Under the pieces are notes generated by a model, which searched no databases, had not been told where the DNA came from, and saw only the letters and a program-made list of their open reading frames with translations. From Methanomassiliicoccales archaeon (GTDB taxonomy: Archaea > Thermoplasmatota > Thermoplasmata > Methanomassiliicoccales > JACIVX01), in the NCBI GenBank assembly GCA_014361295.1, contig JACIVX010000001.1:319924-383923 (forward strand): DNA of 64,000 nt, in the 5' to 3' direction. A program made the position numbers and the translations under genes. Positions 1 to 36,685 of the stretch are shown here, piece after piece. Positions within the stretch are counted from its first letter, which is position 1; every line of letters begins with the position of its first letter.

Positions 1-840
1 GGAGTTGAAATCAGTTGTACTTGTACGCCGTACTTAACAACGAATGTGCCACAGCCGGGTGATACTGTAGCATGGGCTGAATCATCAGCACTTTCTTATG
101 TTAATTCTGTCATCGGGGCGAGAACAAACAGAGAAGGCGGACCTGGCGCTCTTGCGGCAGCAATCATCGGAAAGACGCCACATTATGGACTTCATCTCGA
201 TGAAAATAGAAAGCCCACGGTAATTATCAAGGCAGATATTAGAGAGGGGGTCTTCGATCACTCTTTGCTTGGCCACGCCGTTGGAAAAATTGTATCAAAT
301 GGTGTTCCCTACTTTAGAGGAATACGACCATCTCAAGACGAAATCAAGACACTCGCGGCTGCTATGGCGGCGTCTGGTTCCATCGGTATTTTCCATATCG
401 AAGGGATCACACCTGGTGCAGATCGCTATGATCTAAATAAACTCGAAAAGATTGAAATCGGCAAGAGAGAGATTCAAGATGTATGTGAATCATTGAACAC
501 TGGCGAGGAACCAGAGCTCATTGCGCTGGGGTGTCCCCATCTGTCCATTAAAGAAGTGAAGGTTCTTGCAAAATTCCTGCGTTCGAAGAGAAAGAAGAAA
601 GATATCGATGTGTGGTTTTGTACATCGCGGTATGTTAAGGAAAGGTGCGAGAAGGAAGTCGAGATTCTCGAGAAATTCGGAAGGGTTATTTGTGACACAT
701 GCATGGTAGTTGCTCCAATCGAAGCTATGTATTCGTGCACCGCGACTAACTCAGCAAAGGCGTGCAATTATCTGCCGACGTTATGTTCGCAAAAAGTAGT
801 TTGCGCTGATTCAATTGAACTCCTGAGGATGATAACTTGA
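1..840 (+). CDS. Aconitase X (AcnX, DUF521) catalytic/large subunit, 5'-partial. Likely mevalonate-5-phosphate dehydratase large subunit.
   Basis: The reading frame is open from base 1 with no upstream stop. The ORF track starts it at GTG 46. The stop TGA is at 838-840. The sequence resembles the AcnX large subunit and is immediately followed, with a 4-nt overlap, by a DUF126 small-subunit gene. Confidence 0.65.
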   Translation, partial: GVEISCTCTPYLTTNVPQPGDTVAWAESSALSYVNSVIGARTNREGGPGALAAAIIGKTPHYGLHLDENRKPTVIIKADIREGVFDHSLLGHAVGKIVSNGVPYFRGIRPSQDEIKTLAAAMAASGSIGIFHIEGITPGADRYDLNKLEKIEIGKREIQDVCESLNTGEEPELIALGCPHLSIKEVKVLAKFLRSKRKKKDIDVWFCTSRYVKERCEKEVEILEKFGRVICDTCMVVAPIEAMYSCTATNSAKACNYLPTLCSQKVVCADSIELLRMIT

Positions 841-4600: not shown

Positions 4601-5971
4601 CTCGATCTCTTCGAGCATCAGCTCCTTGATTTGAGTCACTCGAAGGAACCATTGACTCGTCGTTCTATATATAATTGGAGAATCACACCTCCAGCAATGG
4701 CCGTAACGGTGGTCGATCGTACCTTCATAGTAAATCAGACCTTTTTCCTTAAGACGTTCAATGATCAACGCGTTTGACTTTTTAACATTCATTCCAGCGA
4801 GCCAGTCCCCTGCATCCTTCGTGAATCTGCCAGTTTCATCAACGGGGCAGAATGCTTCAAGACCAAATTCCTGTCCAATCTCAAAGTCTTCAGGACCATG
4901 ACCTGGAGCGATATGAACGAGACCAGTATTCTCGGCCGCCACAGTCTTCGAAGGCACTACTCTGTGGACCCATTTACCCGTTGCGTTCTTCTGATATGGG
5001 ACTTCTTCATAAAACGGAGGAATGTATTCCTTTCCGATAAGATCGTCACCTTCAATAGTCCCCAATACTTCGAATTCTTCACAATCAGAGAGGGTGACGA
5101 CTTCTTCAATTAAACTCTCAAGAACGATAATCGTTTGACTTTTACCATCAGGCCCGAAACACTTGACCTTAGCATATGTAAAATCCGGATGTATCGCGAC
5201 TGCCATGTTTGCAGGCAAAGTCCAGGGGGTCGTGGTCCACACGAGTAGTGCGACATCCTCTTCGTCACGCAGGGGAAATTTGACATAAATTGATGGATCC
5301 TTTTCATCCCAATACTCAATTTCTGCTTCGGCGAGCGCTGTTTCACATCGCGGACACCAGGACAAGACTCTGTTTGCGGTCATTAAAAGACCCTGATCAT
5401 ATGCCCTCTTGAGTGTCCACCAAGCTGCTTCTATATACTCTGGTTTGATCGTCATGTAAGGATTTTCCCAATCAAGCCACACTCCGAGCTCCTTGAATTG
5501 CTCGGTCATCCTCTTCTGAAAATCAAGGGCAAATTCTTTGCAGGTGCTGACGAATTTATCGATTCCATATTCCTCAATTTCTTTCTTGCTTTTAATCCCG
5601 ATCGACTGCTCGACCTTCACCTCAATGGGAAGTCCGTGCATATCGTATCCAGGCTGATCCCTCACGTTGTATTTTTGCATCCTTCTGAACCTGATCAACG
5701 TGTCTTTGATGATTTTATTCCATGCGGTTCCGAGATGGATCGATCCAGTTGTATATGGGGGACCATCAACAAAATAAAAATCCGTACCGCTTGATCGAAG
5801 CTCCTTCGTTTTCTTATACGCGTTTGTGTGCTCCCAGTGCTCCTTCACTCTCTTTTCAATTTCTGCTGGATTGTAATTCTGTTGAACTTGCTTGATCATC
5901 GCCGTCCCTTCAGTCACCAAATATCCTTTGTCCTTTTTAAAATTAAGTAAACTGGAAATATGATATCCCAA
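1652..5971 (-). CDS. ileS: Isoleucyl-tRNA synthetase (class I) with an in-frame C-terminal extension of about 350 aa (HhH / zinc ribbon / HhH / zinc ribbon / DUF835-like)
   Basis: HIGH-type motif PPYTTGSIHLGTAW and KMSKS motif are present. The archaeal IleRS body is about 1080 aa. The tail has two CPSCG...CPSCG zinc ribbons, helix-hairpin-helix-like segments (LKGIGTKTADTI) and a terminal DUF835-like block (ILLDGLEYL...). Confidence 0.9.
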   Translation of the reverse strand: MGYHISSLLNFKKDKGYLVTEGTAMIKQVQQNYNPAEIEKRVKEHWEHTNAYKKTKELRSSGTDFYFVDGPPYTTGSIHLGTAWNKIIKDTLIRFRRMQKYNVRDQPGYDMHGLPIEVKVEQSIGIKSKKEIEEYGIDKFVSTCKEFALDFQKRMTEQFKELGVWLDWENPYMTIKPEYIEAAWWTLKRAYDQGLLMTANRVLSWCPRCETALAEAEIEYWDEKDPSIYVKFPLRDEEDVALLVWTTTPWTLPANMAVAIHPDFTYAKVKCFGPDGKSQTIIVLESLIEEVVTLSDCEEFEVLGTIEGDDLIGKEYIPPFYEEVPYQKNATGKWVHRVVPSKTVAAENTGLVHIAPGHGPEDFEIGQEFGLEAFCPVDETGRFTKDAGDWLAGMNVKKSNALIIERLKEKGLIYYEGTIDHRYGHCWRCDSPIIYRTTSQWFLRVTQIKELMLEEIEKIRWTPDWAGSSREYDWTLNARDWCISRQRYWGIPLPVWKCTCGEMKIIGMISDLKGAKGYREGMELHRPWIDAVILTCEKCGGEMRRVPDVLDVWFDSGVSTWAQLGFPGNRKDFDRWWPAKWITEAHDQTRGWFYSQLAASCICFQRAPYESVLMHGWVLDPTGQPMSKSRGNVIEPSAVIKEYGADALRFYMMRTNAPWEDIAFQFEGVKNARRTLNILWNVCNFAISYMVIDKFDPSSVSNEMLKNSLRMEDLWLISKCEKLKNDVTRYLNSYELHKACRALEDFILEDVSRWYVRLVRDRMWKEEGDLDKLAAYKTLYDALMTIVKLIAPFCPHIAEEIYQHLDGSLESVHMLEWPVPDMTKTNDRLETAMRTVQEIVEIVTRERQSKGVKLRWPLRRLIIKPVNKEVMDSIKSLEGVLLSQANVKTVEYVNPDQEWNELILNVVPNPHAIGKVYRQWSSKIAVLLKSRPAKQVKESIEKGEYCLGIEGQLIKIEPNMVSFTVSLPPDVTSAKFSEGELYIDFKITQDIEAEGFSRELIRRIQQMRKDAKLDIEEYIKVQVRAPTKLIEFFKIHMKYIMGETRAQELEFVDEPKGELVREWDIEGENVVISITSMHIRDAMKEFMKIPGLTRETAIALAESGFRNLEDLKKAGEERLSSVKGLNKNDMRKILHFFAKKETAEGESCPSCGAPIKPGVTVCPSCGRSISAKEEVMPKERFIAYLLRIPRMNSLKAEMLYDAGFNSIEKIKKARREDLRSLKGIGTKTADTIYQYAQSGGFEKIITCSTCGSEIMPDALACPSCGTSVPIEGEEIEEVEKAEAQEIEELALEKTFTYLIKEEKSERSYELFMKALSKGFKGFCVTRNYPLKIKTKYDLGDTPIIWLSNVGKENSLRPKDLEKLSVSLEQFLSSTSNSIILLDGLEYLITNNNFLTVLRFVQSLRDQVAIKEAILLIALNPSTLEQHELNLLEKEVDVTI

Positions 5972-6022
5972 TTAATTCTTTCCCATGTGAAAGGTGGCGT
6001 GTATGCATATTTAAAAACGTAT

Positions 6023-7057
6023 TCAACTCCATAGATCAAGGCTCTGCTGTCGGTGTTGTTGACCTTTGATTCTTGTCCAAGCTGCTTCAATCTTTGAGAG
6101 AGCATTTTCAACTCGAGTCCTCGAAAAATCATGCTCCTCGCATAAGAATTCGATCACCTTTACTTTCTCTGCCTCCTTACCTTCGATAGAATATTGATCG
6201 GTTTTTTCAAAATCTTTAAATATCCTTCTTATGGCCTCGTACTTAGGAATGTCTGCATCAATTGTTTTCAACACGGTCTCTAAATTTCCGTAATCTTTGA
6301 TCAACTTCAACGCTTTCTTAGGGCCGATACCGAACAAGCCTTCATTATAATCTGTACCCATCAAGATGCACAAATCGATGAGTTGATCTCTAGAAATGCC
6401 GAGGTGTCCGAGCGTTTTTTGTAATTCAATGAGTTCGATATTGACCTCCTTGAAATCTTCCCTACCGGGCAATTTTCTTTTAGAGGTAAGCGTCAAATTT
6501 CGCACAAGCCGGGGTGCACCAAATAGCAGCGAGTCGAAATCCTGAGACGACGCAGCCCATACATCTCCCTTCGAGGCCATATAAGCCGCTTGCGCTTCTC
6601 CTTCTTCCGGTGCCTGAACGATTGGAATTCCAAGATACGTGAGCAAAACTCGAGATGATGCAACAATTTCATTTGTGATCCTCGTGGACTGAGTAGCTTT
6701 TGAGAAAGCCGTTGCATAATCGCCACTTCGCAATGCATCCTCCCATTCTTTTCTTGCCCTATTCCTCCTCTCACTTCTTTCCAAGATCGTCTGGCTTTTC
6801 ATTTCGGGCGGAACGCCATCAAATACATATATCGGAAGAATACCTACCTCGAGAAGGTTCGCATTTCGATAGAGTAAGCCAGCAAGATGAGAAGTGATCC
6901 TTCCTTTTGAATCCATCAGTGGTGTGCCATCAGGCTGTCGTATGACCGAGAGGAACTGATAAATCGCATTATATGCATCAATCGCTATTCGTTTCCCAGA
7001 TAGAGATTCGAGAGCCAATACATCAGTTGGAACGATCTCTGAAAGATTGACACCCAT
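6023..7057 (-). CDS. fen: Flap endonuclease FEN-1
   Basis: MGVNLSEIVP...IAIDAYNAIYQFL and XPG N/I domains are present. The length of 344 aa is typical of archaeal FEN-1. Confidence 0.9.
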   Translation of the reverse strand: MGVNLSEIVPTDVLALESLSGKRIAIDAYNAIYQFLSVIRQPDGTPLMDSKGRITSHLAGLLYRNANLLEVGILPIYVFDGVPPEMKSQTILERSERRNRARKEWEDALRSGDYATAFSKATQSTRITNEIVASSRVLLTYLGIPIVQAPEEGEAQAAYMASKGDVWAASSQDFDSLLFGAPRLVRNLTLTSKRKLPGREDFKEVNIELIELQKTLGHLGISRDQLIDLCILMGTDYNEGLFGIGPKKALKLIKDYGNLETVLKTIDADIPKYEAIRRIFKDFEKTDQYSIEGKEAEKVKVIEFLCEEHDFSRTRVENALSKIEAAWTRIKGQQHRQQSLDLWS

Positions 7058-27146: not shown

Positions 27147-27449
27147 TCACCGTGTCATGTTTTATCATATCAATGATATGGGAACGGAAAATATCGTAAT
27201 CATATTTGTAGATTTTGAAGGGGGATAGTTAAGGAAGGGTGAAAGAATTCGATTTCTTGCGGTTTTTTTGAATTTTTTCGAATTCGAAGGTTAAAGAGAA
27301 GTTTCATTGAAAAGTAATAGAAGGAAATTCAAACAACTATACCCCTTATGATTATTTTTTTTATTCCTATCAAATTGAAATTCGATCTCCGTAGGCGTAA
27401 CCGAAAAAGACAAATTCGCCATCTCAATCATCAATTTGATCAGATTATG

Positions 27450-28253
27450 ACGATTCTTACAGATCAGAATTACAGCTGGCTCCCAACAGAGCGAACATGT
27501 TCTTGCAAGCCGACGCGATTGAACTGTCTCAGTCGTAAAGAAATAAGTCAGCTTGGCTCAACTGTTCTTAATGTGAACAAGAGACATGTCTGGAAGGATT
27601 CTCATCCGGCACGATTCATCCCTGAACTCCCAGAAAAATACATCAAATTGTTTTCCCATGCCGGGGAAACGGTTCTTGATCCTTTCTGCGGATCTGGAAC
27701 CACGAATGTCGTCGCACTCCAATTGGGGCGAAACAGCATCGGTATTGATATCAACCCGTTTTCTGTAATGACTACAATTGAACGTCTAAGGGAAGCCCAA
27801 AAGAATTCATCGATTGATACCATCCATATGGTTCTTGAAGGCGATTGCAGAAAGACTATGGAAGAAATGCCTGAGGAATCGATCGATCTTATTGTAACAT
27901 CTCCTCCTTATTTTGATGTCGTGAATTATAATCATGAGCATCCTAATCAGCTAGGGAATATTCACGACTATGCAAAATTCCTCAGTGAGATGGAGAAGGC
28001 ATTTGAAGGAATGATGCGCGTCTTAAAACCCGGAAAATACGCGATCGTGAACACACAAGACCTTTTTAAAAAGGATGCTAAATGTCCGATCCATTCAGAT
28101 TATATACAGATTGCAAGAAAAATTGGTTTTGAACTCATTAACATAAACATTTACATTCTCAACTACAGCACTGGTGGTCGCCTTGTGTATGGTTACCCCG
28201 TTGCGTATTTTCCGAAAAACGATCATGAATACATACTAATCTTTAAAAAATAA
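27450..28253 (+). CDS. SAM-dependent methyltransferase with DPFxGSGTT (motif I) and SPPY (motif IV). Orphan N6-adenine/N4-cytosine DNA methyltransferase-like.
   Basis: HPARFIPELPEKYIKLFSHAGETVLDPFCGSGTT...GID, then IHMVLEGDCRKTMEEMPEESIDLIVTSPPYFDV. Motif I precedes motif IV, which is permuted relative to beta-class MTases. No restriction-endonuclease gene is adjacent. An upstream extension to 27348 is possible. Confidence 0.7.
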   Translation, partial: TILTDQNYSWLPTERTCSCKPTRLNCLSRKEISQLGSTVLNVNKRHVWKDSHPARFIPELPEKYIKLFSHAGETVLDPFCGSGTTNVVALQLGRNSIGIDINPFSVMTTIERLREAQKNSSIDTIHMVLEGDCRKTMEEMPEESIDLIVTSPPYFDVVNYNHEHPNQLGNIHDYAKFLSEMEKAFEGMMRVLKPGKYAIVNTQDLFKKDAKCPIHSDYIQIARKIGFELININIYILNYSTGGRLVYGYPVAYFPKNDHEYILIFKK

Positions 28254-28726: not shown

Positions 28727-29713
28727 ATGCGCAAAAACTGGGGAATGAATATGGAAGGGACATCTTCGATCACAAAATGGGAATGGATTAAAAACGTCTT
28801 CCGATTCACGTATACTTTGCCATTTGTTCTTGCCTCGCTTACAGGTGTCTTTACTGCTTTAGTTCATACCTCTCAAATAATAATCGGCGCTTTCATCGTA
28901 CTCGATGTTTTTGTACTCGCCTTATTTGTTAATCTTTCAAATGATTACTTTGATCATAAAAGTGGCGCCGATTCCACAAGATTTTTTTCGAGAGACAAGG
29001 AATTTGAAAGGGGAGCAAGGGAGATACTGAGTAGCAAGTTATACTGGTCAGGAAATGCGTTCGACCTCGGTTATATCACAGAATCCCAGGGGAAAATGCT
29101 GATGGCTGTTCTGGTGGGATTAGCGATCCTCCTCTCAATTCCGATCATCATCTATGGAGGTCTCGTTGTCATTCTTCTCGGTCTCATCGCATTTTTTCTG
29201 AGTTATTTTTATACCGCTCCGCCTCTGAATCTTGGAGCGCGTGGTCTTGGTGAGTTCGACGTTTTTCTTTCATTCTGTATGATTTCTTTCTTTTCCTTTT
29301 TTGTTATCACTGGTTTTTTTAGTCATGATGCCTTCCTCATCGCATTATCGGTCGGTCTCCTTGTAATGAATATGCGAATAGTTGATGAGATGTCGGGGTA
29401 CGAAGCGCATATTGAAGCAGGGGAAAAGGATCTCTGTGTTCGTCTTGGCCTGAAAAACGCGTCAAAGTTGGTAGTTGTCATCATGGTCCTCGTTTATTTC
29501 ATCTCAGCGATTATCGTTGCGCTCTCAAGCATTTTCTACTTATTAGTATTCCTCTCAATTCCTTTTTCATACAAAATCACAAAAACGCTCTTTAATGAGA
29601 GTGATCGTTTCAGATATGTGCGATCCGCCCCTTTAGCATTCAAGTTATCATTTTCATTTCAATTGTTGATAATCATTGCGTCGATAGCGCGAATCTTCGT
29701 GACATCTGGGTAA
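28727..29713 (+). CDS. UbiA-family prenyltransferase
   Basis: NDYFDHKSGAD (the NDxxDxxxD Asp-rich motif) with 8-9 TM helices. Confidence 0.8.
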   Translation: MRKNWGMNMEGTSSITKWEWIKNVFRFTYTLPFVLASLTGVFTALVHTSQIIIGAFIVLDVFVLALFVNLSNDYFDHKSGADSTRFFSRDKEFERGAREILSSKLYWSGNAFDLGYITESQGKMLMAVLVGLAILLSIPIIIYGGLVVILLGLIAFFLSYFYTAPPLNLGARGLGEFDVFLSFCMISFFSFFVITGFFSHDAFLIALSVGLLVMNMRIVDEMSGYEAHIEAGEKDLCVRLGLKNASKLVVVIMVLVYFISAIIVALSSIFYLLVFLSIPFSYKITKTLFNESDRFRYVRSAPLAFKLSFSFQLLIIIASIARIFVTSG

Positions 29714-30602
29714 TAGTTTGCAGATTACCCACGGTGATCAGACGATACTCTCTCACGGCGTTAAAGCCACACTGCTTACACGAAATTGTATTTTGGAGTG
29801 GACATCCAAAATACTTGGAACCATCCGGCAAAACAAACGCCGATACCCAATAAGGGCACTTCTGCGAATAATCCTCCTCGAGCAATTCCTTCAGGGCTCT
29901 GTCAGTATTGAGGATCGGATACCCCTGTCTTTTCATCGTCAAAACGAGATCGACCACCTTTCTCTTCTCTTGAATGTCAAGGGCAATTGAGTTAGGTGGC
30001 GGAGTGAGAAAATTGATCATAATACCACGAATTTTGTGATTTTCGGAAACGAGTTCAATTGTTTCTTTAACAGAATTCACATTCATCTTCGTAATGACCA
30101 TATTGGCGAAAATGTTTGGATGATTTGTTCTTTCCAGGTTCTTCATAAGAGAATCAAATGTTCCGTGTCCGCGGACCTCTTCATGGACCTCTTTGGGCCC
30201 ATCAAGGCTGACTGAAATCACATCGCTTGTCTCAACGATTTCGCGCGTTCCGTTAGTTGTGTAACCAACGACAAAATAGCCAATTTCTTTCCCTGCAGCG
30301 ATAAGGTCTTTCAATTCTTTTGAACCATTCCGCCATAATGTCGGTTCTCCGCCCTCAAAAAACAAAATTCTGGCACCATTTTCATAGTGCTCTTTCATCT
30401 CTCTAACCGCGAGTTCGTAGCTCATCGATTTTGGACCGGGCAGTTCTTCAGCGTGAGCCACTATACTGCAATGTTTGCATCGAAGATTGCATTCATAATT
30501 GATGATCATTGTATTGACGAGTGGCTTTTTTAATCCCAACCTTGACTTTAAAAGCCAGAATCCATAGTAGGCCACTTGGCGGAGCTTCCCGACGCGATTC
30601 AT
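29673..30602 (-). CDS. Radical SAM protein with a C-terminal Cys-rich (SPASM/twitch-like) region
   Basis: CNLRCKHC (CxxxCxxC), the GGEPTL SAM-binding motif, and a C-terminal CPYW...GCPL...CKQCG. Confidence 0.8.
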   Translation of the reverse strand: MNRVGKLRQVAYYGFWLLKSRLGLKKPLVNTMIINYECNLRCKHCSIVAHAEELPGPKSMSYELAVREMKEHYENGARILFFEGGEPTLWRNGSKELKDLIAAGKEIGYFVVGYTTNGTREIVETSDVISVSLDGPKEVHEEVRGHGTFDSLMKNLERTNHPNIFANMVITKMNVNSVKETIELVSENHKIRGIMINFLTPPPNSIALDIQEKRKVVDLVLTMKRQGYPILNTDRALKELLEEDYSQKCPYWVSAFVLPDGSKYFGCPLQNTISCKQCGFNAVREYRLITVGNLQTITQMSRRFALSTQ

Positions 30603-30762: not shown

Positions 30763-30827
30763 TTATCTACATCTTTTCCTGGGCTGATATGCAAGTGTTT
30801 AATCTTCAGAGCATTAGATGTAGATAA
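30763..30827. promoter_or_regulatory. Perfect 12-bp inverted repeat (TTATCTACATCT ... AGATGTAGATAA) with a 41-bp spacer, upstream of the 30911 operon
   Basis: Arms are at 30763-30774 and 30816-30827, read directly from the sequence. The repeat lies in the divergent promoter region between the radical SAM gene and the cluster. Confidence 0.3.
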
Positions 30828-30910
30828 TCGATTGGCTGTTCTTCAATGCACCTAATAACATATTTAAGCTAAAACTTCGATAATTTGCTTATTATACAGG
30901 AGAAAAAAAG

Positions 30911-31441
30911 ATGACTGACATCCGGAGGAAGGTTGAAGAAGATCGCGGCCTCCTCAAAAGAATTCAAAGCTATATTCCGGGCTTTAGAGGCTACAGATTT
31001 CGGGAAGATCTCAGAGACGCGGACAGGATGTTGAGGGCACAGCTGGCCGACAAGTTCGCCAAGCAGCGAAAACAGCTCGAAGAATGCAGATCGATTCTCG
31101 CGCAACACCAATCTTTTGAGATACTTGATGGAATTGGAGGGCTTATTAACCACTTCAAGAAGCTCGAAGGATTGATTTCTCATGCGGAAACAGGATATTC
31201 AGGTCTTGTCTCGGACGTCACAATACACGAAGAGGAACTCAACATGCTTTACGAATACGATTTGAGGATGCTAGAATTGCAATCATCGATATCTGCTGAT
31301 ATTGATGATTTGAGAGAGGGAGCGGCGAATGGAGACACGCAGAAGGTTGGAAAAATGATCGCGGATATTAAGTTCAAGGCTGGCGATTTTGAAGATCAAT
31401 TTCGCAGGCGCCTTAGAATCGTTGAGGGTACTGAGGTGTAA
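30911..31441 (+). CDS. Cytoplasmic coiled-coil protein of 176 aa, first gene of the cluster. Possibly a PspA/ESCRT-III-like adaptor (unverified).
   Basis: Highly charged heptad-rich sequence (LRAQLADKFAKQRKQLEECRSILAQHQ), no TM. Its stop is 4 nt before the next gene start. Confidence 0.5.
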   Translation: MTDIRRKVEEDRGLLKRIQSYIPGFRGYRFREDLRDADRMLRAQLADKFAKQRKQLEECRSILAQHQSFEILDGIGGLINHFKKLEGLISHAETGYSGLVSDVTIHEEELNMLYEYDLRMLELQSSISADIDDLREGAANGDTQKVGKMIADIKFKAGDFEDQFRRRLRIVEGTEV

Positions 31442-31444
31442 TCA

Positions 31445-32557
31445 ATGAGTATCATCGGTGCTGAAACATTCAAGTGGGAAGACGCCGACAAGAGAAATAA
31501 TATCATGTTCAGGATGCCCAGAAACATCCGATTTAACGACAACATCGTTGTGAGGGAAGATGAAATAGCAGTTTTCTTCCGAGACGGAAAAGTACTCGCG
31601 TATATTGATCGCCCCGATCGGTACGCGCTCACATCGATCAACGCGCCCGTCGTAGGGCCGATCGTGAAACTTCTTTCAGGTGTACAGCAGCAAGCTGAGG
31701 TCATTTATCTTCAGAAGAGAGTTTTCGATGGTAAATTCGGAAGCAAACAGCCGTACCCATTCAGAGATAAAGAATTCGGTCTTGTCAATCTCAGGGTTTT
31801 TGGGGAGTTTCGGTACAAAATATCATCACCCGCGAATTTCGTGAATCAGTTTGTAGGTACGCTCAACTTTGCAACGAGTGCCGAGGTTGAAGAGAGAATT
31901 AAGGAACAAGTTGTCATCCTCGTATACGATGTTCTGGGCGATATGAAAAACCAGGGTTTGGGCGTCGCCGATATTGCAAGCAACCTGACGACAATTGAAC
32001 AAGTCATCCTTTCCAGATCGAAGGATCATTTCGATCTCTATGGCATTCTCATCGATAAAATATCGGGACTTTATATTTCGCTACCAGAAGAAGTGCAGAA
32101 AGCCGTCGATACGAGATCCTCTATGCAAGTGCTCGGTGCTAATTATATTCAATATCAGACCGGACAGGCGATGCGCGAGGCTGCGCAGAATCCCTCTGGC
32201 GGCGCGGCTGGAGCGGGAGTAGGCGTGGGAGCGGGGATTGGGATGGGATGGACGATGCTTGACTCGATGCGCCAGGCACAACAGGTTCCACCTGCTGCAC
32301 CTCCGCAAGCTACCATCCAATGTCCGAGATGTGGCGCTCAAAACCTTGCCACTAACAAATTTTGCGCCGAATGTGGATCGCCGTTAACGGGAGCTCGGAC
32401 TTCAAAGTGTCCTAATTGCAGAGCTGATGTACCTCCTGGTTCCAAGTTCTGCCCCTCATGCGGCGCTAACATTTCATCGACGAAGAAATGCGGGAACTGT
32501 GGCGCTGACGTTCCTGTTACCTCGAAGTTCTGCCCAGAATGTGGCAAGCCGTTATGA
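31445..32557 (+). CDS. SPFH/Band-7-like (YdjI-type, Band_7_1) domain protein with a Gly-rich linker and three C-terminal zinc-ribbon repeats
   Basis: The N-terminal ~250 aa resembles the YdjI/Band_7_1 family (IVVREDEIAVFFRDGKVLAYIDRPDRYALTS). A GGAAGAGVGVGAGIGMG linker follows. Then three C-x2-C-x8-10-C-x2-C units: CPRCGAQNLATNKFCAECG, CPNCRADVPPGSKFCPSCG, CGNCGADVPVTSKFCPECG. Confidence 0.65.
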   Translation: MSIIGAETFKWEDADKRNNIMFRMPRNIRFNDNIVVREDEIAVFFRDGKVLAYIDRPDRYALTSINAPVVGPIVKLLSGVQQQAEVIYLQKRVFDGKFGSKQPYPFRDKEFGLVNLRVFGEFRYKISSPANFVNQFVGTLNFATSAEVEERIKEQVVILVYDVLGDMKNQGLGVADIASNLTTIEQVILSRSKDHFDLYGILIDKISGLYISLPEEVQKAVDTRSSMQVLGANYIQYQTGQAMREAAQNPSGGAAGAGVGVGAGIGMGWTMLDSMRQAQQVPPAAPPQATIQCPRCGAQNLATNKFCAECGSPLTGARTSKCPNCRADVPPGSKFCPSCGANISSTKKCGNCGADVPVTSKFCPECGKPL

Positions 32558-32589
32558 ACAGTTAAAATCAAATTATAAGGGCGACATCA

Positions 32590-33333
32590 ATGGCATCAGT
32601 CAAGTGTCCGAAGTGTGGCGCTGCGGTTGCGATCGACGCTGGAACAAAATTCACGAAATGCGCTTTTTGCAGATCGGAAATATATATTGACAGGTCTGGC
32701 GCAGGATTTTATTATATCATTCCCTTCGCAGTCAGGGAAAATGATGCGATCGGCATTTTCAGACGGTGGGCTGCAGGGCCTTCGAGAGCCAAGGATCTCG
32801 ACAGAAAAGCGGAGATCGCGTCGGTTAAAAACGCATATTTCCCCGTTTACATGTTTAAAAGAAAAATTAATGGCAGGGAGCAGGTGTTTGTTGAGCCAGC
32901 TGCATCCACAACATTGCCAGGATTACATCGGTTAAAAATCCCTGCAGGGGATCTGAAAATTTTCGATTCGTCGTTCGACAAGGGAGGCGCAGAATTGATC
33001 AATCCAGATATTGAAATGTTGTCGTATCTCAATAACCTTCCCGGAGAGCGTGTGGAACAAGCGCTTGTTTTCTTTCCAATATGGAAAATCGATTACATCT
33101 TTGATGGAAAGAAATATGATGTAGTAATAGACGGGTCATCTGGTGAGGTCTTTTCGTCGATTTTCCCGGCTCGAAGTTCGATGGGTTACATGCTTGTTGC
33201 AATAGCAGGGTTTGTCGCATTTGTCGGTGAGGGGCTTCTCGCGGCATTCAATCTTCCGATCGCACTCATGTTGATGGGAGCCACTCTTATCGGTGTATTT
33301 CTTGCTGCATTGGTAGTGGCAAGGAGAATGTGA
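32590..33333 (+). CDS. Zinc-ribbon membrane protein, paralog 1 (N-terminal CPKCG...CAFC, novel repeated domain, C-terminal TM)
   Basis: MASVKCPKCGAAVAIDAGTKFTKCAFCRSEIY. Shared motifs YFPVYMF and FFPIWKIDYIFDGKKYDVVIDGSSGEV. C-terminal hydrophobic helices. Confidence 0.6.
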   Translation: MASVKCPKCGAAVAIDAGTKFTKCAFCRSEIYIDRSGAGFYYIIPFAVRENDAIGIFRRWAAGPSRAKDLDRKAEIASVKNAYFPVYMFKRKINGREQVFVEPAASTTLPGLHRLKIPAGDLKIFDSSFDKGGAELINPDIEMLSYLNNLPGERVEQALVFFPIWKIDYIFDGKKYDVVIDGSSGEVFSSIFPARSSMGYMLVAIAGFVAFVGEGLLAAFNLPIALMLMGATLIGVFLAALVVARRM

Positions 33334-34337
33334 TTATGGACATCACGATTAGCCTTAATTGTCCGGCCTGCGGCGGGGCAATCAGCATCGGCGAAGGCGG
33401 AAATGTTGTGATTTGTGAGTACTGTGGTTCGACGCTCTTTGTCGAAGGCGATAGCGGCGTTTATACTATCGCTTTTAAAAATAAAATCACAAAAGACGGT
33501 GCCCTAGTAGAATCGAAACGCTGGTGGTCTGAAGGATTCAAAGCAAGAGATCTGAAAAAATTGGGCAAGATCGTTGAATGCTACGCAATTTATCTTCCTT
33601 TCTGGAATATTGATCTGAAGATCGCAGGATGGATTTGTGGATATGAGGAGCATATTCACACTGATTCAAAGGGAAATGTGCATAGAGAGCGAATTCCAAG
33701 GGAAATCATGATCCTGAAAGAATACGCTTTCACCGAGATCGCCTGCGATCCGGGAGATTTGGGCATACGAAATATGAAGAATTTGTCTGGTGAGACGAGT
33801 TTTGAGGATTTCGAAATGATACCAACTTTTGAATCAACAACGAGCAAAGATGATGCATTGCAGCACGCAAAGGAAGATGCCTTCTCTAGGGCGCGTGATA
33901 GCACTCGATTGACAGAAATCACCTTTGAACGGCTTCATGTTCTCCCGAAGAGAATTTTTCTTGTTTATTATCCAATTTGGGTTGTTCGTTACGAATATCG
34001 AGATCGCATGTATGTTTGCACGATTGACGGTGTGACTGGTAGAATCATTTCTGGCAGGGCACCAGGTGATCCGATATTTCAAAGTCTCGCCGCGACTGCC
34101 GGGGCATCCATTGGGGGTTTGATCGCGGCAGCGGGAATCTTGATTTCACAGGCGGACCCCGGCATCGCGCTCGCTGCGATTGGAGCAGGTCTCGCCATTC
34201 TTTATGCATTCTATCGTTTCTTCAGGCGAGGTTCTGAGATCATTGTCGGCGATTTTAGCGAGAGGTCGTATTCACCAGGCGAAGTGATGAAGGAGATTTC
34301 CGAAGTCACGAGGAAATTTCAGAGGGTGTACAGATGA
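33330..34337 (+). CDS. Zinc-ribbon membrane protein, paralog 2
   Basis: LNCPACGGAISIGEGGNVVICEYCGSTLFV. Shared motifs YLPFWNID and YYPIWVVRYEYRDRMYVCTIDGVTGRI. C-terminal Gly/Ala-rich TM. Overlaps its neighbours by 4 nt. Confidence 0.6.
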   Translation: MIMDITISLNCPACGGAISIGEGGNVVICEYCGSTLFVEGDSGVYTIAFKNKITKDGALVESKRWWSEGFKARDLKKLGKIVECYAIYLPFWNIDLKIAGWICGYEEHIHTDSKGNVHRERIPREIMILKEYAFTEIACDPGDLGIRNMKNLSGETSFEDFEMIPTFESTTSKDDALQHAKEDAFSRARDSTRLTEITFERLHVLPKRIFLVYYPIWVVRYEYRDRMYVCTIDGVTGRIISGRAPGDPIFQSLAATAGASIGGLIAAAGILISQADPGIALAAIGAGLAILYAFYRFFRRGSEIIVGDFSERSYSPGEVMKEISEVTRKFQRVYR

Positions 34338-34921
34338 AAATCGTGCAGGTCAAATGCCCCTCGTGCGGGACGCCAATCCGCATGAAAAACAAAGAAAGTG
34401 TTTTTCTCTGCGATAACTGTGGAATGATGCATACGAGGAATCATGGTATCGAGAGAATCGATTACGAGATTGCTGAGTTCGCTTCGGGCGGCGCAGGCGA
34501 GAGAATGTATATGCCCTTTTGGCGGCTTTACTGCGATTTCTCTATCAGATCAAAGAATGTTGAAGGAGGGTCTTTCTTCCGTCTTGCCCAATGGATTAAG
34601 GGCGATAGAGATTCAGGAGCGCTCTTCGTGTTTATTCCTGCCTTCGATATTAGTCTAGAAGATTTTAAAATACTCTCCACACGCCTCACGCTAAATCCAC
34701 CTCATTATCGAACAACAATGAATTTTGGCGGTGTTGCGCGAATTCCTGTACTTTTGACGAAAGAAGAGGCGCGCGAACTTGCAGATTTTGTCGTCGTGAC
34801 GATTGAAGCCGAAAAACCAGGGGTTCTTCAGTATCTCGATTATTCTCTTTCTGTGAAAGACGAAAGGATCATTTATCTTCCATTCGTTAAAACTTCTTCT
34901 GGTCCTGTCCTCGCTATCTGA
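34334..34921 (+). CDS. Zinc-ribbon protein, paralog 3 (soluble, shorter)
   Basis: VKCPSCGTPIRMKNKESVFLCDNCGMMH. Shared motifs YMPFWRLYCDF and IIYLPFVK. No TM. Confidence 0.55.
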   Translation: MKIVQVKCPSCGTPIRMKNKESVFLCDNCGMMHTRNHGIERIDYEIAEFASGGAGERMYMPFWRLYCDFSIRSKNVEGGSFFRLAQWIKGDRDSGALFVFIPAFDISLEDFKILSTRLTLNPPHYRTTMNFGGVARIPVLLTKEEARELADFVVVTIEAEKPGVLQYLDYSLSVKDERIIYLPFVKTSSGPVLAI

Positions 34922-35034
34922 AGTGAGTGAGACATAAATCCATGAAAAGAAATTTGGAATTCGATGTAATTCATTCCAATTAAATTCCAAATTACTGATC
35001 AGACATAAGTCCAAATACATCAACCGCAATTATA

Positions 35035-35532
35035 ATGTTGATGTCTCTAGGCACCATACTGGCACTTGCATTTATTATTATCGGCATCATTATGCTAATT
35101 GCCGAAGCTGCTTCTCCAGGGTCTTTCATCCTCGTTCCAGCCACTGTCCTGATCGTTCTCGGCGGGATCGGTTTGGTGTCTCCGGAATGGTTGCTGAGCT
35201 GGTGGGCACCTGTTGCAGCAGTCATCGTTCTCATTCCCACAACGCTTGTCACAATCAAACTCTATCAGAAATTGGCTCCCCCAGCACCTCCCGAAACGAC
35301 GGTTGCGACTTCGCTAATTGGTGCGACTGGTATCGTCGTGAGAGAGGTTACACCAGATAATCTACGAGGAAAGGTACGAATCCAAAATGATATTTGGAGT
35401 GCGACCGCATCAAAAACTATACCTGTCGGGACGCGCGTCATTGTTAAGAACAGCGAAGGAGTTCATGTATTTGTTGAGGAATTGGTCGATGAAAAGGCAT
35501 CAATCAATGAGACAGGAAAGAAGGTGACCTGA
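35035..35532 (+). CDS. NfeD-like membrane protein, short form (TM plus OB-fold, no protease domain)
   Basis: N-terminal TM helices, a C-terminal beta-rich OB-like domain (VVREVTPDNLRGKVRIQNDIWSA), and its position immediately upstream of the stomatin gene. Confidence 0.75.
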   Translation: MLMSLGTILALAFIIIGIIMLIAEAASPGSFILVPATVLIVLGGIGLVSPEWLLSWWAPVAAVIVLIPTTLVTIKLYQKLAPPAPPETTVATSLIGATGIVVREVTPDNLRGKVRIQNDIWSATASKTIPVGTRVIVKNSEGVHVFVEELVDEKASINETGKKVT

Positions 35533-35557
35533 TGGAGATTTTTGAGAAATTCAAGAA

Positions 35558-36685
35558 TTGGGGGCAAGCAAAATGGATGTAATGAGCGCGGTGATACTGT
35601 CGCTTTTGTTGCTCGCGATTTTTACGGCGATAGGAATTCTTGCAAGTGGCATCAAAATTGTGAGACCTTATGAACAGGCCATTTACATGAGGCTCGGTCG
35701 GTTCGTGAGGGTGCTCAACCAGGGTTTTAATTATGTGACTCCACTGATTAATGAAGTTGTCAAGATCGATCTGAGAACACAGGTATTGGATGTTCCCAGG
35801 CAAGAGGTTATTACGAAAGACAACTCCCCTACAAACGTCGATGCTATCATTTACATCAAGGTCATTGATCCTACCAAAGCGTTCTTCCAGGTGACTAACT
35901 ACCGAATGGCAACGATCTATCTCGCACAGACGACATTGAGATCGATCATCGGAGACATGGAACTTGATGAGATCCTTTCGAACAGAGAGAAGATCAATCT
36001 CCACCTGAGAGACGTTCTCGATGAGGCAACGGACAAATGGGGCGTAAAGGTCGAAGCAGTCGAGATTAGGGAAGTCGATCCGGCTGGTAAAGTCAAAGAG
36101 GCAATGGAAGAGCAAACGTCGGCCGAGAGACTGAGACGGGCTGCCATTTTGAAAGCAGATGGTCAAAAAAAGGCAGCCATCCTCAACGCTGAAGGAGAAA
36201 AGCGAGCGAGGATTCTGCAGGCAGAAGGTCTCAGGCAGGCGAAAATTCTTGAGGCGGAAGGGGAGAGGCTCGCAACGATTCTACGAAGCCAGGGAGAAGC
36301 CCAAAAGCTTCGAATTCTGTCTCTAGGAGCGACACCACTTGATTCAAAAGCGTTGACTGTTCTTTCTCTCGATACACTGAAGGCGTTAGGGAGCGGACCT
36401 GCGACAAAATTCATCCTGCCGTTTGAGCTGACAAGACTCGTCGAAGGCGCGTCTGAATATCTGGGTATGGCAAGACAAACGCCGCCAAGAGATGCGAGCA
36501 AAATTGAGGATATAGAAAAGGCAGTCGGGAAGGTGGACGATATCCTCGGTCCGATACCGACACCAGAGGAACTCAAAAAGGAATTGAGATCACTTGAAGA
36601 GGCGATGGAAAAGGAGAAAAAAGAAGTCGAATCAATTGCAGAGGCCACTAAAAAGGACAAAGGTCGAAGCATTCAGATCGATTAA
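35558..36685 (+). CDS. Stomatin/prohibitin-family SPFH (Band 7) protein
   Basis: TM anchor, then the SPFH core IVRPYEQAIYMRLGRF...IDLRTQVLDVPRQEVITKDNSPTNVDAIIYIKV, with a long coiled-coil tail. Confidence 0.9.
   Translation: MGASKMDVMSAVILSLLLLAIFTAIGILASGIKIVRPYEQAIYMRLGRFVRVLNQGFNYVTPLINEVVKIDLRTQVLDVPRQEVITKDNSPTNVDAIIYIKVIDPTKAFFQVTNYRMATIYLAQTTLRSIIGDMELDEILSNREKINLHLRDVLDEATDKWGVKVEAVEIREVDPAGKVKEAMEEQTSAERLRRAAILKADGQKKAAILNAEGEKRARILQAEGLRQAKILEAEGERLATILRSQGEAQKLRILSLGATPLDSKALTVLSLDTLKALGSGPATKFILPFELTRLVEGASEYLGMARQTPPRDASKIEDIEKAVGKVDDILGPIPTPEELKKELRSLEEAMEKEKKEVESIAEATKKDKGRSIQID

Follow-up and report, generated by a model that had tools for sequence, protein, structure and literature searches.

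The pspA-ydjGHI operon of Bacillus subtilis, an envelope-stress operon renamed pspA-samGHI, is the closest described counterpart of a gene cluster that we analysed in a 64,000-nucleotide stretch of DNA (hereafter, the window) from a Methanomassiliicoccales archaeon (assembly GCA_014361295.1, contig JACIVX010000001.1, positions 319,924 to 383,923 of the forward strand). In B. subtilis, the soluble SPFH protein YdjI requires both YdjG and YdjH to reach the membrane, and PspA in turn depends on YdjI for the formation of foci (PMC8581546); SamG–SamH are reported to signal as well, with SamI restraining them (bioRxiv 10.64898/2026.02.06.704340). The cluster in the window comprises seven open reading frames (ORFs), denoted here G1 to G7 and listed below with product lengths in amino acids (aa):

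30911-31441, + strand: G1, 176 aa, soluble helical protein
31445-32557, + strand: G2, 370 aa, soluble YdjI-type SPFH protein
32590-33333, + strand: G3, 247 aa, YdjG-like membrane anchor
33330-34337, + strand: G4, 335 aa from a GTG start, second YdjG-like membrane anchor
34334-34921, + strand: G5, 195 aa, soluble zinc-ribbon protein
35035-35532, + strand: G6, 165 aa, short NfeD protein
35558-36685, + strand: G7, 375 aa, stomatin-type SPFH protein

A preliminary description of this region had reported seven co-directional ORFs, tightly spaced and with a larger gap before the NfeD gene, and all of them are present as described. G1 and G2 are separated by 3 nucleotides (nt), G2 and G3 by 32 nt, G5 and G6 by 113 nt, and G6 and G7 by 25 nt; G3 and G4 overlap by 4 nt, as do G4 and G5. 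In public gene calls G4 begins with the ATG at 33336 and is 333 aa long, which turns the G3–G4 overlap into a 2-nt gap. The G+C content is unremarkable across the region. A protein identical to G1 is on record from a Methanomassiliicoccales MAG (metagenome-assembled genome), which places the window in Thermoplasmatota. Our analysis shows that the observations of the preliminary description were largely right, and its interpretation to about half: we are dealing with an SPFH module of the YdjG/YdjI type in which a new family, not PspA, occupies the first position, and the stomatin operon lies outside this module.

Comparison with described systems

The module resembles pspA-ydjGHI in several features. 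In both, a soluble SPFH protein of the Band_7_1 type (here, G2) ends in one or several zinc ribbons attached through a low-complexity linker, and a membrane protein (here, G3 and G4) combines an N-terminal zinc ribbon with a transmembrane segment and a YpeB-related domain, the latter being putative in G3 and G4; in both, the first gene encodes an all-helical protein of about 175–220 aa, and the genes are co-directional and tightly spaced. This likeness to the Bacillus YdjG and YdjI rests on published descriptions of their architecture. Unlike the Bacillus operon, the archaeal module starts with G1, a member of an unrelated uncharacterised family, and not with PspA; the YdjG-like gene is triplicated, yielding two anchored proteins and one soluble truncated protein, each with one ribbon as opposed to the two described; the SPFH gene comes second and not at the end; and the host is an archaeon with ether-lipid membranes and no peptidoglycan.

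Another related arrangement is seen in the "Meth_adaptin" archaeal ESCRT loci (PMC11188069), where an archaeal SPFH protein with a coiled coil and a zinc ribbon is likewise linked to a helical partner of the membrane-remodelling type. Those loci, however, encode genuine ESCRT-III, Vps4 and adaptin-like proteins, none of which is encoded here, and the partner in our case, G1, is not ESCRT-III.

Conservation of the gene order

Conservation was assessed using one genome per GTDB species; a G1 relative was found in 211 species, and the best 80 of these loci were analysed. All 80 are archaeal, nearly all with Thermoplasmatota-type labels and one labelled Methanoperedens. The order G1-G2-G3-G4-G5 is kept in 58 out of 60 loci having enough sequence, and the protein lengths are nearly constant in distant Thermoplasmatota, even at 45–60% identity. 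The NfeD–stomatin pair is found downstream of G5 in 13 out of 52 loci, each of them bearing the label of Methanomassiliicoccales or a relative, and is absent from the other 39; in other Thermoplasmata, G5 is followed by a NUDIX gene on the opposite strand. Because the order of G1–G5 is kept almost everywhere while the pair follows in this minority only, the conserved unit is the five genes, and the stomatin pair is a lineage-specific neighbour. Thus, the seven-gene cluster does not hold as a unit: five of its genes recur in relatives, the full seven in a quarter of them. The neighbours of the module in distant relatives are housekeeping genes, e.g., those for the NOG1 GTPase, PolD DP2 and urocanase; such surroundings and the fixed order are what one would expect of a core function passed on by vertical inheritance.

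Two variants of the locus deserve mention. A MAG labelled Candidatus Methanoperedens carries a far more divergent five-gene version in unchanged order (locus L084, 2436-6555; identity 41% for G2, 35% for G3, 32% for G4, and 25% for G5), so that the module may extend beyond Thermoplasmatota, or else the contig may be mis-binned. In some Thermoplasmata, an additional G1 paralog stands alone about 1.3 kb downstream of G5, namely, L047:13280-13828 (36% identity to G1) and L052:~5873-6370 (34%); the former is devoid of the GYSG motif and adjoins a gene for a predicted multi-transmembrane protein, not an SPFH gene.

The NfeD–stomatin pair

NfeD–stomatin operons are known in both archaea and bacteria, namely, PH1510–PH1511 in Pyrococcus, YuaF–FloT and YqeZ–FloA in B. 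subtilis, and YbbJ–QmcA in Escherichia coli. The identification of G6 and G7 as such a pair, made in the preliminary description, is firmly supported. G6 matches NfeD in residues 92–148, the C-terminal OB-fold domain (E-value 5.5e-13, 49.3 bits vs. the cut-off of 29.1), and has transmembrane windows over residues 1–78; no ClpP-like protease domain was detected by the Pfam scan, identifying it as the short form. G7 matches Band_7 in residues 33–203 (9.7e-40, 136.9 bits vs. the cut-off of 23.6), has an N-terminal transmembrane or hairpin anchor (window 1–36) and a C-terminal tail rich in coiled coils, and yields sub-threshold NCBIfam matches to HflK and FloT. Thus, as in the known operons, the gene for a membrane NfeD protein with an OB-fold immediately precedes, on the same strand, that for a Band_7 stomatin which is anchored in the membrane and has a coiled-coil tail; what differs is that G6–G7, in this lineage alone, has another SPFH module, one of the YdjI type, as its neighbour.

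The pair is separated from G5 by the following spacer:

34922-35034, no strand: AT-rich spacer between G5 and G6, 113 nt

Within it lies an imperfect inverted repeat of 19 nt (34943-34961 / 34983-35001, 84% complementary, with a 21-nt loop). In seven relatives possessing the NfeD–stomatin pair, the corresponding spacer carries a conserved GGCATAnCTTTTTAAA-like element some 25–30 nt before the NfeD ATG; this is likely the archaeal promoter (B recognition element and TATA box) of a leaderless NfeD–stomatin transcript. The copy in the window is weaker, and the spacer of the window aligns poorly with those of the relatives. The spacer is probably the boundary between two transcription units.

G6–G7 is probably a separate classical unit, incidentally located downstream of the module in one Methanomassiliicoccales sub-lineage. 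Because the pair is a lineage-specific adjacency with an apparent promoter of its own, neither the physical joining of the module to a stomatin operon nor a single machine with two SPFH scaffolds, both suggested in the preliminary description, finds comparative support.

The SPFH protein and the zinc-ribbon proteins

The assignment of G2 as a Band_7_1/YdjI-type SPFH protein with three zinc ribbons was confirmed. The Band_7_1 match (PF13421; 8.8e-33, 114.1 bits vs. the cut-off of 24) spans profile positions 7–211 of 211 and residues 24–229 of the protein, and a Gly/Ala-rich, low-complexity linker connects this domain to three C-terminal CxxC...CxxC ribbons in residues ~290–370 (Zn_Ribbon_1 in three stretches; DZR, 5.6e-23). 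No hydrophobic window was seen in the hydropathy scan, and hence G2 has no transmembrane anchor. As far as the domain composition goes, this is the architecture described for YdjI (PMC8581546, PMC11237479).

G3 and G4 are clear paralogs (BLASTP 2e-16; hhalign 99.2%, E-value 1.2e-19, 201 columns). G3 consists of an N-terminal zinc ribbon, two alpha+beta modules of a putative YpeB/YpmB/PepSY-like type (with a weak PepSY match, E-value 0.071, in residues 163–188), and a C-terminal transmembrane hairpin at residues ~198–247. G4 has the same architecture with the addition of a disordered insert (residues ~137–171) and a C-terminal cytoplasmic helix, its transmembrane hairpin being formed by residues ~251–296. 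The AlphaFold2 (AF2) model of G4, of moderate quality (pLDDT 65), features, in this order, the ribbon, a module of a helix and a long beta-hairpin, the disordered insert, a second module of a helix and a sheet, two transmembrane helices, and the C-terminal helix. With this putative module type, the architecture of G3 and G4 matches that outlined for YdjG in PMC11237479 (zinc ribbon, YpeB-related domain, transmembrane segment).

Each of G3, G4 and G5 contains one ribbon of the CxxC-x(13-17)-CxxC form, and their Pfam matches are to generic zinc-ribbon models, apart from the weak PepSY match of G3. G5 aligns with the G3 family in the ribbon and the first module, with a common Y-PFW motif (hhalign 93%, E-value 2.7e-7, 109 columns), and with the G4 family in the zinc ribbon alone; its C-terminal half is distinct and conserved, with a ADFVVVTMEAEKPGVLQ motif, and the hydropathy scan revealed no transmembrane segment. 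G5 is, therefore, a soluble, truncated relative of G3. Thus, the preliminary view of genes 3–5 as zinc-ribbon paralogs with a shared repeated domain holds for G3 and G4, and for G5 only in the ribbon and the first module. The three ribbons of G2 are matched in number by the three partners, G3–G5, with one ribbon each; the numbers do not match in the bacterial loci viewed, and this correspondence may be a coincidence.

The G1 family

Neither G1 nor ten members of its family match any Pfam family at E ≤ 1. The sole NCBIfam match of G1, to LIMLP_15305, is sub-threshold (6e-11, 42 bits vs. the cut-off of 210), and the only trace of LIMLP_15305 found in the open-access literature is an incidental table entry, as a gene flanking a small RNA in a Leptospira peroxide transcriptome. 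The AF2 model of G1 (pLDDT 84, pTM 0.83) has helices at residues 4–21, 31–65, 72–91, 107–140 and 143–173, the four long ones forming a compact bundle of two helical hairpins. Hence, from the description of gene 1 as a cytoplasmic coiled-coil protein, the helical nature and the lack of a hydrophobic segment (hydropathy scan) are retained, while the model shows no long coiled coil.

The hallmarks of the family are the motifs PG[FY]xGY (around residue 22) and GY[SAT]G (around residue 94) and a conserved C-terminal GTEV. In archaeal G1 proteins the mean column identity is 77%, with PGFxGYR, EDxRDxD, MLR, GYSG and the terminal E-V being invariant. From the helix topology of the model, both the PGFRGY and the GYSG loops are expected at the same end of the bundle as the C-terminus. 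An exhaustive profile search retrieved 1,276 representative clusters at 50% identity, 684 of them at E ≤ 1e-10, and most members are 165–185 aa long and have both motifs. The archaeal branch is homologous to the bacterial one over the full length (hhalign 100%, E-value 3.8e-46). Fusions also occur, namely, G1 with DUF4178, a zinc ribbon with G1, and, in the protein P0290, a G1 segment at the N-terminus that precedes a partial Band_7_1 domain.

A relationship of gene 1 to PspA or ESCRT-III, which the preliminary description had put forward for checking, was supported by none of the comparisons made. The hhalign probability against E. coli PspA is 0.6% and 1.3%; profile searches against PDB gave no matches; in the Foldseek search with the G1 model, the best match has an E-value of 0.19, and PspA and ESCRT-III are not among the matches. 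With 35, 20, 34 and 31 residues, the long helices of G1 fall well short of the PspA hairpin, and the ESCRT-III fold, with its long alpha1–alpha2 hairpin and alpha3–alpha5 packing, is not seen in the model. Since the Foldseek, hhalign and PDB profile searches were all negative, G1 is not demonstrably PspA or ESCRT-III, as far as can be judged from its sequence and predicted fold. In open-access text, we found no description of the G1 family or of its pairing with Band_7_1, and nothing relevant to such a partnership in the literature on Band_7_1/PF13421.

Bacterial and metagenomic neighbourhoods

We also considered 80 G1-family loci from metagenomes, a set without taxonomy, of which 61 had at least 900 bp of downstream sequence and 54 were used for the upstream gene. 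A Band_7_1 homolog is encoded directly downstream of G1 in 47 of the 61 loci and after one intervening gene in ten, and is missing in four. The intervening gene encodes a protein with a zinc ribbon, a transmembrane segment and a Toastrack domain (DUF4097) in three loci and a DUF4178 protein in one, according to the Pfam scan, and several others look alike by eye; Toastrack is a recognised partner of phage-shock-protein (PSP) systems (PMC11237479). A gene of the G3/G4 family lies directly upstream of G1 in 20 of the 54 loci. On all four long bacterial contigs examined, a G1 homolog is immediately upstream of Band_7_1; three of these four Band_7_1 proteins have zinc ribbons, and one has a helix-turn-helix domain. 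One of the contigs has a G1 protein of Chloroflexi origin, and other named members of the family come from Chloroflexi and Anaerolineae MAGs.

The G3/G4 family is linked to Band_7_1 elsewhere as well. In Vibrio and Paracoccus, the genes directly downstream of Band_7_1 match the G3 profile (hmmsearch, 5e-19 and 4e-18, respectively), their products having two zinc ribbons. In Ralstonia, the Band_7_1 gene is found in a DUF350–SPFH–DUF4178–polyamine context, with DUF4178 directly adjoining. An operon of this type has been described as a PspA-replacing variant (PMC11237479). Thus, these proteobacterial neighbourhoods share with the archaeal module the Band_7_1 hub, the G3/G4-family zinc-ribbon proteins encoded after the SPFH gene (Vibrio, Paracoccus), and DUF4178, a neighbour in Ralstonia that is fused to G1-family proteins elsewhere; in contrast, a G1 homolog is missing from all three proteobacterial loci examined, and the archaeal module has no polyamine genes. 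A tblastn search of plasmids with the SPFH domain of G2 yielded no Bacillus-type pspA-ydjGHI operon, the copies found being proteobacterial and, in a few cases, from actinobacterial chromids.

Because the G1–Band_7_1 and G3/G4–Band_7_1 linkages recur independently, the YdjI-type SPFH protein is the hub, and the G1 family and the YdjG-like family are its two recurrent partners.

Two of the bacterial-type loci have additional features. A 2.46-Mb metagenome contig (L112:5139-7856) encodes, in this order, a G4-like protein of 250 aa without a transmembrane segment, G1, Band_7_1 with zinc ribbons, and a multi-transmembrane protein of 115 aa with no Pfam match; the latter may supply the membrane anchor absent from the G4-like protein. 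On plasmid pFER4 of Paracoccus ferrooxidans (L174:1683-6401), a TelA-like "toxic anion resistance protein" and a DUF2927 protein precede the Band_7_1 SPFH protein and the G3/G4-family zinc-ribbon protein. TelA is another helical protein encoded upstream of the Band_7_1 hub; it is unrelated to G1 (hhalign, 0.9%).

Signals upstream of the module and neighbouring genes

Upstream of G1, one candidate promoter element was noted, and a GGAG Shine–Dalgarno-like motif lies about 8 nt before the ATG; both were identified by inspection of the sequence only:

30858-30869, + strand: candidate TATA-like element of the archaeal type, ACATATTTAAGC, ~45 nt before the start codon of G1

The intergenic region upstream of G1 is 308 nt long and contains a perfect 12-nt inverted repeat, TTATCTACATCT / AGATGTAGATAA, with arms 41 nt apart (30763-30827), which could be an operator or a structured element. 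Farther upstream, ORFs for a UbiA-family prenyltransferase (+ strand, 28727-29713) and a radical SAM protein (- strand, 29673-30602) are convergent and overlap by 41 nt, both being present in public assemblies, and a gene for an N6/N4 DNA methyltransferase (27348-28253; Pfam N6_N4_Mtase in the public gene call) is located about 2.6 kb upstream of the module. A search of the rest of the 64-kb window for a PspA homolog or further copies of the module found none.

Discussion

Taking the architectures and linkages together, we favour, with somewhat better than even confidence, the explanation that G1–G5 encode an SPFH complex lying beneath the membrane, similar in type to YdjGI/SamGI but with a member of the G1 family in place of PspA as the partner of the SPFH protein. 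The five genes would constitute one operon and their products would assemble around the soluble SPFH protein G2. G3 and G4, with the bulk of the protein in the cytoplasm and held by the C-terminal transmembrane hairpin, would serve as anchors and probable sensors bringing G2 to the membrane, a role modelled on that of YdjG and YdjH (SamG and SamH) for YdjI (SamI) in B. subtilis. The anchor-less G5 could be an adaptor or a competitor modulating the interaction of G2 with G3 and G4. G1, in the gene position and likely the functional slot of PspA, would be a dedicated client or co-factor that G2 recruits or controls, and its most conserved elements, the PGFRGY and GYSG loops and GTEV at the C-terminus, would form the docking surface. 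The complex as a whole would sense, stabilise or repair the cytoplasmic membrane under stress. The physical contacts, the role in membrane stress and the operon boundaries are predictions of this model, drawn from the gene content and gene order reported above.

Several points weigh against this explanation. None of G1–G7 matches TPM_phosphatase at E ≤ 1 in Pfam, and hence the module has no counterpart of the TPM-domain protein YdjH, which has been proposed as the direct anchor in Bacillus. No similarity of G1 to a characterised protein was detectable, and casting G1 as a client, and not as a regulator or an assembly factor, is a guess based on gene position. In one Methanomassiliicoccaceae MAG (L054:8001-11630), G1–G2 are followed after ~370 nt by NfeD–stomatin, with no G3–G5 present, which could be due to a deletion or misassembly, or could hint at a functional tie between the two SPFH units. 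Finally, the G5–G6 spacer of the window has no clear TATA box, and read-through into NfeD–stomatin is possible. As for the preliminary interpretation of the locus as an expanded archaeal variant of the ydjFGHI module, the YdjI architecture of G2 and the conserved order of G1–G5 speak for it, whereas the lack of PspA and of a YdjH-type TPM protein does not.

The first alternative, that G1 is a divergent PspA/ESCRT-III remodelling protein and all seven genes encode one machine with two SPFH scaffolds, draws on the fact that G1 occupies the position of pspA relative to ydjG/ydjI-like genes, is all-helical and is of about the right size; linkages between SPFH proteins and PspA or ESCRT-III are known from Bacillus (PMC8581546) and from Methanobacteriales ESCRT loci (PMC11188069), and G6–G7 follow on the same strand in the 13 loci mentioned above. 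However, G1 has no PspA_IM30 or Snf7 match in Pfam at E ≤ 1, the hhalign, PDB and Foldseek comparisons are negative, and the helices are too short, while the NfeD–stomatin pair is absent downstream in most relatives and has an apparent promoter of its own; we thus regard this alternative as quite unlikely. A more serious variant, in our view still rather improbable, retains the complex but makes it mainly a signalling and not a repair device, with G3–G5 as a membrane-stress sensor restrained by G2 and G1 as a regulatory adaptor, by analogy with SamG–SamH/SamI. The loss of SamI is reported to lead to constitutive SamG–SamH signalling and a global transcriptional change, PspA being dispensable for the phenotype (bioRxiv 10.64898/2026.02.06.704340); in some bacteria the G1–SPFH dyad includes a zinc-ribbon transmembrane Toastrack protein, and Toastrack has been proposed to be a sub-membrane signalling platform (PMC11237479); and G5 resembles a soluble decoy of the anchors. 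On the other hand, no DNA-binding, kinase or other output domain was found in G1–G5 by Pfam and NCBIfam, no conserved regulator accompanies the module in the loci examined, and the zinc ribbons belong to the generic kind that mediates protein interactions.

Two further explanations were considered. An anti-virus defence or mobile-element module might be suspected, as the homolog pair on a Vibrio plasmid lies ~0.9 kb from a divergent three-gene cluster ending in a TIR-domain gene, and G5 has a weak PADLOC match to HEC-08 (2e-5); yet this match covers only the zinc ribbon of G5 (residues 2–46), the other six proteins have no PADLOC match, and the near-invariant order, the housekeeping neighbours and the ordinary G+C content make such a role highly improbable. 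Equally implausible is the interpretation of the zinc-ribbon proteins as nucleic-acid-binding or transcription factors. It could be derived from the automatic JGI name of G4 homologs, "DNA-directed RNA polymerase subunit RPC12/RpoP," and from weak NCBIfam matches to RpoP and TFS4 (E-values 0.06–0.26) in the first ~30 residues. These matches, however, cover the CxxC...CxxC ribbon only and are far below the family cut-offs, whereas the proteins are 195–335 aa long, G3 and G4 have transmembrane hairpins, and the linkage to the SPFH gene is strict. The "RNA polymerase subunit" names, resting on matches limited to the ribbon, are thus zinc-ribbon artefacts.

Beyond the sub-membrane SPFH complex proposed for this locus, a broader generalisation can be offered tentatively: the G1 family may represent a new class of sub-membrane effectors recruited by YdjI-type SPFH proteins, a non-homologous functional replacement of PspA/ESCRT-III in the maintenance of the membrane, of which the five-gene operon of Thermoplasmatota would be the most elaborate and most strictly conserved form. 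To our knowledge, YdjI-type SPFH proteins, widespread as they are, have been studied only in Bacillus and have one known client, PspA; the tie of the same hub to the G1 family in many bacteria and in Thermoplasmatota points to a possible new partner. The annotation can be corrected in two respects, as G4 is not an RNA polymerase subunit and the NfeD–stomatin pair is not a part of the module. G1 can be singled out as a candidate for a new effector or regulator associated with the membrane, and the five-gene module provides a starting point for studying the membrane biology of archaea with ether lipids and no cell wall, among them Methanomassiliicoccales, the methanogens of guts and wetlands. 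If the G1 family is indeed a client of the SPFH hub, membrane surveillance by SPFH proteins would have a longer history and a more modular make-up than a view centred on PspA implies.

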